Positions 12,001-21,000 of a stretch of 34,690 bases of DNA are shown one piece after another. A program made the position numbers. Within the stretch, counting starts at the first letter, position 1. Each line of letters starts with the position of its first letter. Origin of the DNA: Candidatus Sysuimicrobiota bacterium (GTDB lineage: Bacteria > Sysuimicrobiota > Sysuimicrobiia > Sysuimicrobiales > Sysuimicrobiaceae); contig PSLI01000022.1 of assembly GCA_040289515.1 (NCBI GenBank), forward strand, positions 1-34,690, in the 5' to 3' direction.

Positions 12001-15000
12001 GTGTACAGCACATTCACCCGGTACTTCTCCACGATGCGCCAGTACCGGTCTTTGTCGGGCCAGTCGGGGGCGCCTTCGTACATCACCGAGGTGGCCCCGT
12101 TGCTGAGCGGTCCGTACACGATGTAGCTGTGGCCGGTGACCCAACCGATGTCCGCGGTGCACCAGTACACATCCTCGTCCTTCAGGTCGAACACCCACTT
12201 GCTGGTGAGGTGCACGCCCAAGAGATACCCACCGGTGGTGTGCAGCACCCCCTTGGGCTTCCCCGTGGTGCCGGAGGTGTACAGGATGAACAGGGGGTGC
12301 TCGCTGTCGAGCTCCTCCGCGGGGCACGAGCCGGGGGCCTGGGCCTCCAGCTCGTGCCACCAGAAGTCCCGGCCTGCTCTCATGGACACCTCGTTGCCCG
12401 CGCGCCGCAGCACCACCACTTTCTCAACGGAGGGGCAGCTCTCCAGAGCCTGGTCCGCGAACTGCTTGAGGGGTACCACCTGGCGCCGGCGCCACGCCCC
12501 GTCCTGGGTGATGAGCACCTTCGCCTGCGCGTCCTGGATGCGGCCTGCCAGGGCCTCGGCGCTGAACCCGCCGAACACCACGCTGTGCGGGGCGCCGATG
12601 CGGGCGCAGGCCAGCATGGCGATGGGCAGCTCGGGCACCATCCCCATGTAGATGGTGACCCGGTCGCCCCTGTGCACCCCCAAAGCCTTCAGCACGTTGG
12701 CAAACCGCTGTACCTCCCGGTGCAGGTCCTGGTAGGTGAGCACCCGGCTGTCACCCGGCTCGCCCTCCCACACGAGGGCCGCCTTGGTGCGGCGCCAGGT
12801 GCGGGTGTGGCGGTCCACGCAGTTGTAGCAGACGTTCAGCCGCCCTCCCACGAACCACTTGGCCCACGGCGGGTTCCACTCCAGCACGCGGTCCCACTTG
12901 CGGAACCACTCCAGTTCCGCCTCCGCGTGTTTCGCCCAGAACCCCTCCGGGTCCCGGTTCGCCTCCTCGTACACCCCCGGGTCCCGCAGGTTGGCGCGGG
13001 CAGCGAACTCCGGAGGCGGGGGGAACCTGCGGGTCTCCTGCAGCAGGACCTGGATGGTAGCCTGGATCTGCACGCTGTCCATACGATCCCCCCTTCGCTT
13101 TACCAGGCTGATGCGGATGGCTTAGCGGTTGTGTTCGCCGGACCTCTTCCTTGCACCTGCCTCGCTCCGCCTGCAGCTGCCTCCAGGCGGCCCGGGCCTC
13201 CTCCACGGACCCCTCGTCCTCGATCGTGGTGATGTCCCCGGGGTCCCGGCCCAGGATCACCGAGCGAAGAACCCGCCGCATGATCTTCCTGGTGCGGTTC
13301 TTGGGCAGCACGAAGACAAAGGTCACCTCCCCGTCCGGCCGGCCCAACACCCCGCCTCCGCCACCGCGGGGTGGTGCCGGAGGTGGCGAGGATGTAGGCA
13401 GGCTCATTGGCTACCGGGGTTAGCCAGCCATGGCCAGGAGGCGGTCGACCATGCGGAGAGCAGCACCAGGGGGGCCCATACGGTGCTTGCCCGCCTGTCC
13501 GCGGCGCCGCCGCTCCTCCGGGTCTTCCAGAAGCCTCAGGACCGCGCGCGCGGCCTCCTGCGGTCCGGAGACGGGAACTACGGCCTCACCCAGCAGCTTC
13601 GCCTGCAGCTGGAGGAACTTCCGGTTGAACTGGACTCCGCCGCCGGGGAACACCACCACGGGTTTGCCCAGCCCCGCTGCCTGCTCGTGAGCGGTGCCCG
13701 CCATGCCCAGGACCACCCAGCTGCGCGCGACAGCATCGGCGAAGTTGCGGGTCCACTGCACCTGCAGGTGCTCATCGCGCATCCAGGACGGGTCCAGGAC
13801 GGCTCCGCAGGCCCGGGCCAGCTCCTCGGGTTGCACGCTGGGGGAGACGGCCAGCAGGAAGTGCACGTCAGCCCGCCGCGCAGCGATCTGCCGGGCGGCG
13901 GCCCAAAGCCGGGCCAGGTTGTCGCCCGCGTCGCGCCGGCTGCCCGGCAGGAGCAGCACCACCGGCGCCTCCTGCGGCAGGTGGAAGGTCTCGCCCGAAA
14001 ACTCCAGGCAGTCCATCATGAGGTTGCCCACGAACTCCGCGGGCAGGCCCGCGCGCCGGAAGCGCTCCGCGGTGACCTCGTCCCGCGGGAACGAAAGCGC
14101 GCTCATCCGGCGCACCAGGGCCAACTCGAACCACCGGTGCGGGTCGTTGGTCTCCGACTTGGCGGTGGGCACGTACACTACCGTTCTCCCTGCCGCGGAG
14201 GCCATCCACAGGCAGAACACATCGCCCACGGCCACCACCAGCCGGTGACGGTTTCGCTGCGCCCGCAGGGTCCCGCGCTGGGCCAGGGTGAGGGGGATCC
14301 AGCCGGCCCGCAGGTCCTCCCACGCGGCCCGGATCCCCGTGCGGAACCCGAAACCCGCGGTGGGCAGATTTCGCCTCGGGTCCAGGGTCCGCACGCCTGC
14401 GGCGGCGTACGCCTGGCCCATCCCCACCAGGGGATACGCCGTCACCTCCACCCCCCGCGACCGCAGGGCGCGCGCCAAAGCCGCGCCCATCAGGTCCTCT
14501 CCATACCCGTTGGAGACCAGCAGGCAGGAAACCGATCGCGCGGAGTCTTGCGGGTTCACCGGACCCTTCGCCCCGGCCCCCGAGCGTCTGGCGAGATCTC
14601 CTGTAGGGCTGCCCACACGCCTTCGTAGTAACCGTGCCACAAAAGGTGGCAGTAGCACTCGCTGGCCACCGCAAGCCACACCTTCCGCCGCAACCCAACG
14701 GCCGACCGCAACGCGCGCTCCGCCACGTGGAGCACGGCCTGCACGCCGGGAGTAAGGATCCCGCTGCGGTAAACCAACCACTTCAGGGGCCGGACCAGGG
14801 GGTGCAGCTCCAGAAACATGCCCAGCCCAAACGGGCGGCCGTGCTTTGTCCAGAAGTAGACAGCCCCGCGGCCTGCCTCCACCTGCTTCCGTCGGGCCGT
14901 CTTGAGGTCCTCCACGTGGTAATGCCAGGCGCGAGCCTGCGGCTCCCACCGCAGCCGGACGCCCGCCTTGCGCAGGCGAAATCCCAGCTCGATGTCCTCC

Positions 15001-18000: not shown

Positions 18001-21000
18001 GGGTGTGTCGTAGCCCCGGGGCAGGGCGCGGATGAAGCCGTCCGCGTTGGCCGCCACGGCCGCGCGCACCACCTCCTCCAGGAGGGCCTCCGGCCGACCG
18101 TACGCGATGTTGTCCCGGATGGTGCCCGCGAACAGCACCGTCTCCTGGGGCACGTACGCGATGCGCCGGCGCAGGCAGTCCGTGCGGATCTCCCGCAGGT
18201 CCACCCCGCCCACCGTCACCCGGCCCCGGGTGGGCTCGTAAAACCGCAGAAGCAGGTTGGCCAGCGAGGTCTTGCCGGCACCGCTGGGCCCCACCAGGGC
18301 TACGTGCTCCCCGGGTCGGATGCGCAGGTCCACCCCGCGGAGGGCCCAGCGGCCCGGCTCGTACGCTAGCCACACGTCCTCGAAGACCACCTCCCCGAGA
18401 CTCCCCACGAGGTCCCGGGCACCCTTGGGCTCTTCTGCCACCGGCACGCGCAGGATCTCCTCCACCCGCTCTAGGGCGGCCGCCGCCTGCCGCGCGTGAC
18501 TGTACAGCCGGGTAAGGCTCACGCCGGGCTCGATGGCCATGGCCACGTACGCGATGAACGCCACCAGCTCCCCCGGGGTCATCAGGCGGGCGGCCACCAG
18601 CTGCCCGCCCACCCACAGGAACACGATCAGCCCCACCGCGGTGGCCAGGCTCATGGCGGCGACTTCCAGGGCCACCAGGCGGCCGATGCGCAGCTGCTCC
18701 CGCAGCAGGTGCCGGTTCTCAGCCCCGAAGCGCTGCTCCTCGCGGTGCTCCTGCACGAAGGCGCGGACGATGCGGGCGCCCGCGATCACATCCCGTACCC
18801 GGGCCGCCAGATCCGCCACCCGCTGCTGGGCGAGGCTGGAGGTGTGCTGGATCTGAGCGCCAAAGTGACGGGCCAGCACCGCGGTCCCGGGGAGAATGGC
18901 AAAGGTGGCCGTGGCCAGCCGCCAGTCCAGCACGAACAGCATGACCACGGTCCCCAGCAGCGTCACCGCGGTGGCCACCAAGTCCACAAGCCCCACCAGG
19001 AGGTGCGTGTGCACCAGCTGCGTGTCCTGCAGGGCCCGGGACATCACCTCCGCGCTGTGCCACCCGCCCAGGCGGTCCACCGGCCAGCGCAGCACCCGGG
19101 CAAACAGCCGCTCCCGCAGTTCCGCGATGGCCCGGTGGGCGAAGGCGAAGCTCAGGGAGATCTGGCCGTACAGGAACAGGGAGCGCACGGCGAACACGGC
19201 AAGGCCCAGTAGCGCCAGGTGCTTCAGCAACTCCAGGTCGCCGGTGGACACGAGGCGGTCCACCAGATCCCGGAACAGCAGAGGGACGCTGAGGCCCGCC
19301 GCGGTGGCCGCCAGCACGCAAACCACCGCGGCCACCAGCAGGCCGCGGTGGGGCCACGCGACCTCCCGCAACAGAGCGGGCACCCTCATGAGGCCAGCTC
19401 CAGGATCCTCCGGGCGAGCCGCTCGGCGGCTCCCCTTTGGGGCTGGAAGTGATGCTGTAAACCCTCCCGCATCCGCACAAGCCGCTGGGGGTCCAGCAGC
19501 AACCGCACCAGGCGCGCGGCCACCGCCTCCGGCGGAGCGTCGCTCACCTCCTCCTCCACCAGCAGCTCGCCCGCGGTGGCGTTCACGGGGCTGGCGTAAT
19601 GCAGGCGCCGCAGGCCCCTGCGCACCGCCCATGCCTTGACCTGCGGGCCCAGCAGGGGCAGGCGTCCGATCCACTCTACCAGGCCCTCCAGGGGAACCCT
19701 GGCGGGGTCGTAAAGGGGCAGCCACACCAGCATGGGGATGCCCAGCAGGCCCAGCTCCACGTTGGACGTGCCCGGCAGGGTGAGGGCCAGGGCCGCCTGC
19801 GCGAGAGCATCCCGCCGCTGCTGTTCCGTCCACGCCACGCGGACCGGTGCGTCTTGCAACGCTTTCCGCACGAGCTCTTCTTCGAGGAAGGGGGAGGGAA
19901 CCAGCACGGCCTCTACCCCGCCGACGGCTTGCTGAACCCACCTGGCCACCTGCAGCATCAGGGGGGCGAGGTCCTCGAAGATGTCCGGCCGCGAGCCGGG
20001 GAGCAGCAGCAAGACCCGGTGGGAGCTACGGGGCTGCGCAGGCTCCACGGCGTCTGCCCGAAGGTCTCCCACCGCCTCCACCTTGTCGGGCGGGACTCCA
20101 CGGCGCACCAGCTGCTGAGCGAGGTCGTGGCTGCTGGTGGCGATCCACACGAAGGCCCGGTGCCGCCGGACCACCAGGTCCCGCTCCACATAGGCCACCG
20201 CGGGGCAGCGCGCTCGGCGCCCCAACCGCGCCGCATACCACAGGTCCCCGCCGACGTGCACCACGCAGCAGGCCCGCACAGATCGCCCACCCAGGGCCAG
20301 CCACACCACCTCCCGGGGCGGATACACCCGGTCGAACAGCCCTGACTGCTCGGCCACCGCGGCCTCCCGCCCCGTGGCGTACTGGCACGGCGGCAAGGCC
20401 AGCTGGATCCAGGCGTCCGGCACCACGCGGCGCACGGCCCGCGCGAGGGGAAAGGCCCACCCGGCCAGCTCCCCGGGCCCGTTGGACACCAAAAGCAGCT
20501 CCACGCAACCATTATAGGCGCGCGCGACCCCACGCAGGACGGCCCGCCCGGCGCAGCGAATTATGGTTGAACCCGTGCGCGCCTACGTTCTTGTGCTGGC
20601 CGCCATCCTGGCGGGAGCAGTACCCGCGCGGGCGCAGCCCGCGCCCCTCGTGGTGGAGGCCGACCGCATCACGTACGACACCGTGGCCCGCACCGTGGAG
20701 GCCGCAGGCCGGGTGCGGCTGCGGTACGGGGACGTGCAGGCCTCCGCGGACTACCTGTTTGCGGACCTCGCAGCGCGTAAGTTCCTGCTGCGGGGAGACG
20801 TGCGGTTCCGCCGGGGCGACCAGTCCATGGCGGCCTCCGAGGTCCGGTACCGCGCGGACACCGACCGGGTGCTGGCCACGGAGGTGCGGACCCTGGCGGA
20901 GGCCGCCTTCCTGCGCGCCCGTGAGGTGGACGCAGGCCGCCAGGGGGCCGTGGCCCTGGACGCTGCCGCCACCCTGTGCGATCCTGCCAACCCATTGTTC

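Follow-up and report, generated by a model that had tools for sequence, protein, structure and literature searches.

An LpxB-like glycosyltransferase and a TIGR03492 protein from the same operon are candidates for attaching the first sugars to Kdo-free lipid A

A six-gene operon of Candidatus Sysuimicrobiota bacterium (genome G000), found in the window analysed here (the 34,690 nucleotides of contig PSLI01000022.1), begins with a gene, referred to as X (g01511), whose product very probably has a catalytic role in assembling Kdo-free lipid A; from genome and sequence comparisons, we put the probability of this reading at roughly 0.85. For the attachment of the first sugars to this lipid A, the best candidate enzymes are X and the TIGR03492 protein encoded by the last gene (g01506). 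The chances are about even that X would glycosylate the 6′ position, adding the first core sugar. As in the survey's finding on this DNA, a literature search covering few subscription journals revealed no published proposal for the X family, nor for TIGR03492.

The genes are arranged on the minus strand in the order X-msbA-like-GT2-waaL-GT2-TIGR03492 (Table 1). This bears out the survey's finding of an operon flanked by two LpxB paralogues, with the start of X shifted from 20489 to a GTG at 20504, which is more likely because the orthologues open with MELLLVSNGPGE. The divergent LptD-like gene beside the operon recurs in relatives. The exporter scored 420 bits against TIGR02203, below the cut-off of 602, and further MsbA-like genes are present on contig C57; it is called MsbA because of its context. 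G000 carries lpxA, lpxC, lpxD, lpxI and lpxB, and, as reported earlier, three LpxB-like genes, with the true LpxB on contig C75 (TIGR00215, 222.8 bits; cut-off 190.25). LpxK, WaaA, the Kdo genes and LpxL were not found in this genome, a profile search confirming the lack of WaaA. The KdsA profile reached 133 (cut-off 314), KdsB gave weak partial matches only, and tblastn detected no match to Kdo synthesis genes.

Table 1. Features of the operon and of the adjacent divergent gene.
Feature	Coordinates	Strand	Remarks
X (g01511, P0001), GT-B protein, 372 aa	19386..20504	-	LpxB-like UDP-binding domain at the C terminus; invariant N[SG]PGE in the N-terminal domain
MsbA-like ABC exporter, 581 aa	17644..19389	-	ABC_membrane and ABC_tran; start overlaps the stop codon of X
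GT2 glycosyltransferase, 297 aa	16744..17637	-	PF00535, E 1.2e-32
WaaL/IctB-like O-antigen ligase, 412 aa	15518..16756	-	PF04932, E 8.8e-25; TIGR00947 below cut-off
Second GT2 glycosyltransferase, 327 aa	14556..15539	-	PF00535, E 1.7e-31
TIGR03492 protein (g01506, P0002), about 379 aa	13420..14559	-	286.8 bits; cut-off 219.2
LptD-like gene, divergent, outside the operon	20563..22029	+	NF003358 (LptD), E 1.3e-10, below cut-off

X resembles LpxB (GT19; PF02684/TIGR00215; PDB 5W8N, 5W8S, 5W8X) in its GT-B fold and in being closest to it among PDB sequences (E 1.7e-24), but it lies far under the family cut-off: PF02684 matched residues 161-260 only (E 4.8e-10, profile search), and the scores were 47.8 bits against TIGR00215 (cut-off 190.25) and 23 bits against TIGR03492 (cut-off 219). 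The C-terminal domain aligned with LpxB at E 7e-42 (hhalign) and with WaaA/KdtA (GT30; PF04413; PDB 2XCI) at only 9e-5. The N-terminal profile, in contrast, preferred WaaA in four of five master sequences (scores of 50-53, and about 31 for LpxB), the fifth showing no such preference. In the profile search, PF04413 did not match P0001, and it weakly matched three orthologues (E 3-6e-4). X can be described as a putative WaaA-like acceptor domain joined to an LpxB-like donor domain, and it may mirror the common ancestor of both enzymes. In a FastTree analysis of 93 rows, X (99), LpxB (98), TIGR03492 (100) and WaaA (100) each occupied one side of a branch; X is a GT-B clade separate from the other three. 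Fold searches with the AlphaFold model (pLDDT 96.6) were set aside as a guide to identity, since neither LpxB nor WaaA was singled out by the whole model or the N-terminal domain. In Foldseek the top place went to a UDP-GlcNAc 2-epimerase, with LpxB in second position and WaaA in fifteenth, correcting the earlier statement that LpxB and then WaaA were the best hits, and for the N-terminal domain LpxB (Z 12.1, rmsd 2.9, 136 aligned) tied with WaaA (Z 11.9, rmsd 2.8, 139 aligned), both being outscored by epimerases. Although epimerases lead the fold lists, PF02350 (UDP-GlcNAc 2-epimerase) did not match P0001 at E 0.01.

The Gly-Glu pair of X (G11-E12) was invariant in 145/145 sequences and aligned with the SVGE motif of WaaA (hhalign); it is not exclusive to WaaA, because LpxB too has GE at this place. 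We take E12 to be the equivalent of E31 of Aquifex WaaA. Table 3 of PMC5785501 lists Aquifex E31 as the catalytic base. Where LpxB has AGExSGD, X carries N[SG]PGE..W; S17 and D19 of LpxB and its P-P-x-x-W126 groove are absent from X according to the motif table, there being no PP-W segment. Around D98, the predicted base of LpxB, X has GG[D84/E13], in a region where the hhalign register is uncertain. X retains equivalents of the LpxB residues P198, G199, S200, R201, T277 and E281 and of the structural N316 (P 92, G 98, S 98, R 80/K 18, T 77, E 80/Q 17 and N 99% of 145 sequences), the UDP-binding roles being those assigned in PMC5785501. None of the WaaA C-domain motifs (STH..E, PR, GGS..GGHN) is found in X. 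By analogy with LpxB and WaaA, X would be an inverting enzyme.

The distribution of X is largely complementary to that of WaaA. In Sysuimicrobiota, which the survey had described as X-rich and WaaA-free, 83 of the 94 genomes gave a match to X at E<1e-30, with fragments counted, and intact WaaA was found in 0/94; these tallies take in the unpublished G017 and G025, both X-positive. The WaaA of G071 was set aside as a probable contaminant, being frameshifted and alphaproteobacterial-looking. A genome-by-genome count, missing from the earlier work, gave no overlap in Cyanobacteriota (n=201: X 120, WaaA 75, both 0, neither 6) or in Bacillota (n=261: X 36, WaaA 18, both 0), and WaaA was present in 18/19 Bacillota with an LpxB-level match and no X. 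Among the 102 Halanaerobiia, the sole group where both LpxK and WaaA were counted, X occurred in 17, WaaA in 74, both in one and neither in 12; LpxK was positive in 75, overlapping with X only in G170, and 16 had X with no match to WaaA or LpxK. Since X avoids LpxK no less than WaaA here, the distribution does not separate a 4′ from a 6′ role. WaaA was found in 0/50 named X-bearing genomes and, intact, in 2/304 distinct X-bearing genomes overall, although kin are not independent and the counts amount to about three lineage-level swaps. X also has members that carry the labels Acidobacteriota and Gemmatimonadota, phyla outside the WaaA tallies. Searches for X or g01506 in plasmids gave no match, and no X relatives were found in viral contigs.

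The two exceptions, G170 and G823, contradict the strict mutual exclusivity claimed before. G170 holds intact X plus intact WaaA; G823 holds intact X, lpxI-lpxB-msbA-LpxK::TIGR03492, lpxL and a complete Kdo pathway (kdsA-kdsD-waaA-kdsB). Contamination was rejected for both on tetranucleotide composition, which pairs the X and waaA contigs of G823, although a co-binned organism of similar composition would escape this approach. Atlas clusters of X-like proteins, TIGR03492 and the LpxK fusion were commonest in Synergistota, so the exception may span this phylum, which was sampled once; LpxK::TIGR03492 is the fusion typical of it.

Gene order suggests a replacement of one module by another. Kdo-type operons (G237, G226, G242) read lpxB-msbA-DUF374-lpxK-kdsB-kdsA-kdsD-...-lpxL-lptCAB, and their X-type counterparts (G152, G153) lpxB-X-(GT2)-(msbA)-TIGR03492-galU-lptCAB. 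The X module occupies the same lpxB-to-lpt position as the LpxK-KdsABD-WaaA-LpxL module of Negativicutes/Halanaerobiales, a group in which PMC5007114 describes the Kdo set as complete; the 16/102 Halanaerobiia mentioned above depart from that description. A Negativicutes-type operon (G512) shows lpxB-msbA-waaA::lpxK-kds, with WaaA fused to LpxK. X lies immediately 3′ of lpxB in 27/36 X-positive Bacillota and in G767, G804, G877, G742 and G908; LpxB-X fusions (P0047; P0120, from a 92-member cluster) and fusions of X to the family of the 297-aa GT2 (P0163, P0165, G854) also occur. None turned up in a search for longer fusions (869-2480 aa), a negative of little weight. Adjacency and fusion to lpxB indicate that in those lineages X acts alongside LpxB and does not take its place; canonical LpxB accompanied intact X in all 32 X-positive Bacillota with the pathway retained and in 5/5 Cyanobacteriota checked. 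In the remaining four X-positive Bacillota, with no matches to LpxB, LpxC or TIGR03492, X persists beside lptB/msbA and has lost the GE motif. The nucleotidyltransferases next to X differ among lineages (GalU, ManC-like, RmlA-like), so they indicate no donor sugar. Around the cyanobacterial X, which stands alone, no conserved envelope gene turned up.

TIGR03492 (lipid-A-disaccharide synthase-related protein) is an LpxB-related GT-B family with invariant motifs of its own, SNG[HY]GED plus UDP motifs, and no similarity to WaaA was seen in its N-domain (probability 0.2%). The family is found together with X and clusters with it: in the 261 Bacillota it was present in 32/36 X-positive genomes and nowhere else. 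Fusions to LpxK were found in a 752-aa cluster and in G823 (762 aa). Of the control genomes, Synechococcus elongatus and Deinococcus radiodurans, the latter with no LpxC match, were above the cut-off; Thermus thermophilus fell below it, contrary to what had been stated for Thermus.

We propose that X is a cytoplasmic GT-B enzyme that would use a UDP-sugar, probably a hexose or uronic acid, to glycosylate LpxB's product, a tetra-acyl disaccharide, ahead of flipping by MsbA. The sugar would sit on the 6′-hydroxyl, elsewhere the position of Kdo and the acceptor of WaaA, and begin the core, which the GT2 enzymes would lengthen and to which WaaL would ligate O-antigen; X and TIGR03492 would share the labour as a two-enzyme module in place of LpxK-KdsABD-WaaA. 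With odds slightly short of even, this module may be an ancient second branch of lipid A maturation, free of Kdo and 4′-phosphate and repeatedly exchanged with LpxK-Kdo-WaaA, its users being oxygenic cyanobacteria, Sericytochromatia, Sysuimicrobiota, Aerophobetes, many diderm Bacillota and Deinococcota, and Synergistota-type genomes holding both. In cyanobacterial LPS, Kdo and phosphate are missing and C6′ bears glucose or galacturonic acid (PMC4515613), and only lpxA/C/D/B have been found in cyanobacteria (PMC3087551); the enzyme linking core to lipid A is therefore a gap there, for which X and TIGR03492 provide two testable genes in tractable organisms. The division of diderm Bacillota into two LPS types bears on the ancestral outer membrane, and also on the making of low-endotoxin or antagonist lipid A.

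The survey had cast X as the replacement of WaaA. Its place as a glycosyltransferase of the Kdo-free pathway is upheld by the lineage counts, swap, fusions, motifs and decay, but a 6′ role for X alone is weakened because TIGR03492 tracks X in Bacillota and X excludes LpxK in Halanaerobiia; the TIGR03492 fusions, G823 and the Deinococcota operons weigh the same way. TIGR03492 could instead be the WaaA-like 6′ enzyme, with X placing an acidic sugar on the 4′-OH, where LpxK puts phosphate, or adding a second sugar. Its fusion to LpxK, like that of WaaA in G512, the distribution that it has in common with X in Bacillota, its invariant GED and UDP motifs, the avoidance of LpxK by X in Halanaerobiia, and the galacturonic acid at C4′ and glucan at C6′ of Synechococcus lipid A (PMC4515613), two positions for two orphan enzymes, favor this assignment, which we nevertheless consider unlikely: TIGR03492 occurs in LpxC-less D. 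radiodurans, its N-domain is unlike WaaA, the neighbor and fusion partner of lpxB is X, and in G823 both proteins stand alongside LpxK and WaaA.

It is distinctly unlikely that X is an alternative condensing enzyme using UDP-2,3-diacyl(diamino)glucose, replacing LpxB in Deinococcota and elsewhere making a variant backbone or a heterodimer with LpxB. As the survey had noted, Deinococcota-type operons read lpxA-X-msbA with no lpxB: in 54/80 Deinococcota-enriched loci, lpxA preceded X and the operon gave no match to lpxB or lpxI, X taking up the lpxB position; the Trueperaceae-type order is lpxD-lpxC-(GnnA-like oxidoreductase)-fabZ-lpxA-X-msbA. The LpxB-like C-domain, and the C-terminally swapped LpxB dimer described in PMC5785501, were also counted in favor. 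Canonical LpxB, however, accompanies intact X in the Bacillota and Cyanobacteriota cited above, X lacks S17/D19 and the W126 groove, and the exclusion of WaaA and LpxK would be left unexplained. Quite improbable, too, is that lipid A, or a second glycolipid exported by Lpt, is decorated by X and TIGR03492 apart from core attachment, the anti-correlation reflecting the inheritance of two ancient envelope types and no replacement of a single step; the coexistence in G823 and G170, the degenerate X kept next to lptB/msbA in lpx-less genomes and TIGR03492 in D. radiodurans would fit. Against it, X operons showed no other recurring gene that could account for the first core sugar, the catalytic motifs of X decay once the lpx genes go, and the gene-for-gene swap takes place in the same operon inside one class.

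The operon that begins with X (g01511), an LpxB-like GT-B protein, comprises six closely packed genes on the minus strand and ends with a second LpxB paralogue, a member of TIGR03492 (g01506). A separate operon of the same genome (contig C75) carries lpxD, a BamA-like gene, lpxC, fabZ, lpxA, lpxI, lpxB, lptC, lptB, lptF/G and an ArnT-like gene. In this genome, which is 96.7% complete, WaaA, LpxK, KdsB, LpxL and a heptosyltransferase are all missing, and KdsA over cut-off was not found. With this gene set, lipid A disaccharide synthesis and LPS export are therefore possible, and every known later step is missing. 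Downstream (27977-32887 of the window) we observed a Wzz-like gene and rmlA/rmlB/rmlD-like dTDP-rhamnose genes, which together likely supply O-antigen for the operon's WaaL.

Genes of the X operon and the neighbouring LptD-like gene
Feature	Position	Strand	Remark
X (g01511)	19386-20504	-	372 aa
MsbA-like exporter	17644-19389	-	
GT2 (first)	16744-17637	-	
WaaL/IctB-like ligase	15518-16756	-	
GT2 (second)	14556-15539	-	
TIGR03492 member (g01506)	13420 to about 14559	-	
LptD-like gene	from 20563		divergent from operon

The survey's finding that X is common and WaaA missing in Sysuimicrobiota was borne out, since X was detected at E<1e-30 in 83 of 94 genomes (a tally that takes in the unpublished G017 and G025) and intact WaaA in 0 of 94. 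One of these genomes has a frameshifted waaA on an alphaproteobacterial-looking contig (G071:C21, L017), likely a bin contamination. WaaA was also found in none of the 50 X-bearing genomes examined from 80 named GTDB loci, among them oxygenic cyanobacteria, Sericytochromatia, Halanaerobiales, other Bacillota, Aerophobetes and Desantisbacteria. Tests within lineages are stronger than this cross-genome tally. Among 102 Halanaerobiia, the class of the Halanaerobiales genome G096, 17 carry X (2 partial), 74 WaaA, 1 both and 12 neither; LpxK is present in 75 and overlaps with X only in G170, and 16 genomes have X without WaaA or LpxK, which differs from the full Kdo set described for Halanaerobiales and Negativicutes in passages of PMC5007114. 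The Cyanobacteriota sample (n=201) gave X in 120, WaaA in 75, both in 0 and neither in 6, and the WaaA-bearing genomes, all of 1.6-2.3 Mb, are probably one non-photosynthetic group. The 120 include a genome whose sole X-level match is a strongly degenerate X-like gene (G375:C268, L252). Bacillota (n=261, 206 without an LpxB-level match) yielded 36 genomes with X, 18 with WaaA and none with both. X was present in 12 of about 200 cross-phylum genomes, and WaaA in 1 of the 10 new X carriers checked (G823; G908 lies outside the 10). A few genomes hold two X copies: G216 (C51 and C53), G006, G024 and G701.

Overall, intact WaaA occurs in 2 of 304 distinct X-bearing genomes, mostly MAGs without stated completeness; kin are not independent, so the counts amount to roughly three swaps at the level of lineages rather than to hundreds of separate ones. 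The proposed mutual exclusion of X and WaaA thus holds in nearly all of these genomes but fails in its strict form, as G823 and G170 hold both. G170 has X-msbA-TIGR03492-waaL plus an lpxK-kds-lpxL-waaA cassette. G823, examined almost whole, combines a solitary intact X with lpxI-lpxB-msbA followed by a 762-aa LpxK::TIGR03492 fusion (G823:C10, L306:11486-13771), lpxL and kdsA-kdsD-waaA-kdsB, and its X and waaA contigs pair by composition. This fusion parallels the WaaA::LpxK fusion of G512. Because an X-like cluster, a TIGR03492 cluster and a 752-aa LpxK fusion cluster are each commonest in Synergistota in the Atlas, we infer that G823 is of Synergistota type, and coexistence of X with WaaA may be phylum-wide there. 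An ELM1-family gene lies within the waaA cassette of both exception genomes (G170:C58, G823:C3).

A profile search for the X family yielded 517 clusters at E<=1e-30, some of which may be LpxB; G11, E12, E47, G85, G146 and G245 are invariant in 145 diverse members. The model of X is a confident GT-B fold (pLDDT 96.6). Its best fold matches had been given as LpxB and then WaaA, but UDP-GlcNAc 2-epimerase ranks first, LpxB second and WaaA fifteenth, and the N-domain alone ties LpxB with WaaA. Fold searches do not discriminate here, and profiles are more telling. For the C-domain profile the match to LpxB reaches E 7e-42, against only 9e-5 for WaaA, and this domain retains equivalents of the UDP-binding residues of LpxB (described in PMC5785501). 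With the N-domain profile, WaaA beats LpxB, TIGR03492, GT4, GT9 and ELM1 for 4 of 5 master sequences, and NSPGE of X aligns onto SVGE of WaaA; since the alignments compared held 1 to 18 sequences each and LpxB has GE at the same place, this likeness is modest evidence. X resembles LpxB in one domain and WaaA in the other but belongs to neither family, and in a 93-row FastTree X, LpxB, TIGR03492 and WaaA form four separate groups.

Gene order links X to lipid A genes. Where a WaaA-type Halanaerobiia operon reads lpxB-msbA-DUF374-lpxK-kdsB-kdsA-kdsD-...-lpxL-lptCAB, the X-type genomes G152 and G153 have lpxB-X-(GT2)-(msbA)-TIGR03492-galU-lptCAB in the same place. X lies immediately 3' of lpxB in 27 of the 36 X-positive Bacillota, and Aerophobetes as well as five cross-phylum genomes also show the order lpxB-X(-msbA). 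Full-length LpxB-X fusions (P0047; P0120, a 92-member cluster) and X-GT2 fusions were also found. TIGR03492 is present in 32 of the 261 Bacillota, every one an X carrier. In the other four X carriers, which gave no LpxB or LpxC match, the Gly-Glu that is invariant elsewhere is gone from X, and the gene still sits amid lpt/bamA genes; this connects the catalytic motif of X with the pathway to lipid A. A Bacillota lineage that lacks LpxC and LpxB matches and whose X is without its catalytic motifs (G520:C6, G596:C166, G628:C101, G658:C6; L241-L244) shows the order lptFG-lptC-lptA-(large gene)-ABC-X-(msbA)-lptB and possibly represents LPS-less diderms keeping Lpt and a pseudo-enzyme X. G637, with no LpxC, WaaA or X match, has an LpxB homologue (TIGR00215 179 bits, just below cut-off; G637:C1:563100-564300, L245) in an lptFG-lptD-like...ABC-lpxB-lptB cluster. 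A DUF362/4Fe-4S gene is immediately upstream of X in L221, L223 and L224, in L221 and L224 between lpxB and X. Directly after one of the two X copies of G854 comes an ICMT/PEMT-type methyltransferase gene (G854:C43, L291:10381-11181); the second copy is fused to a GT2.

X and TIGR03492 are a real, widespread, uncharacterised two-enzyme module, nearly always in place of LpxK-Kdo-WaaA. We found no proposal for the X family in the literature outside subscription journals and supplements, and passages of PMC13721041 and PMC8871954 hold nothing further on it. According to the review PMC4515613, the lipid A of Synechococcus contains no phosphate and bears galacturonic acid on C4' and a chain of glucose on C6', Oscillatoria planktothrix has galacturonic acid at C6', and older reports gave Kdo in some cyanobacteria (see also PMC4390846); a genome survey of cyanobacteria lists lpxA/C/D/B only (PMC3087551). 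With two positions vacant and two UDP-sugar-type orphan enzymes available, a module replacing LpxK plus WaaA would fit. Because X follows or is fused to LpxB, has a WaaA-like N-domain and depends on lpx genes, we place it at the 6' position, where it would add the first core sugar; this is the leading hypothesis, not an established role (probability about 0.5). The reverse assignment, with TIGR03492 at 6' and X at the other position, is less likely; the shared distribution of the two proteins in Bacillota speaks for it, but it is X that follows or is fused to lpxB.

That X might be an alternative condensing enzyme seems improbable; lpxB accompanies it in the Bacillota orders. A result that counts against the main reading comes from the Deinococcota clade, which carries Trueperaceae names: in 54 of 80 loci X is preceded by lpxA, and neither lpxB nor lpxI was matched (operon scope). 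X of this clade is nested within the X group of the tree. An independent decoration by X would be more doubtful still, set beside the loss of Gly-Glu where LpxB and LpxC are missing; the coexistence of X with the Kdo genes in G823 and G170 speaks for it. TIGR03492 had been reported over cut-off in Thermus, which is not so in T. thermophilus; D. radiodurans has it over cut-off, with no LpxC match. Further X members carry Acidobacteriota and Gemmatimonadota labels. The full Deinococcota-type order is lpxD-lpxC-GnnA-like-fabZ-lpxA-X-msbA, and the GnnA-like oxidoreductase gene between lpxC and fabZ (L161, L206, L211, L213 and similar) suggests a diamino-sugar backbone. A DegT-type aminotransferase gene lies inside the lpx operon of G742, and a gene of similar size occupies the same place in G908.
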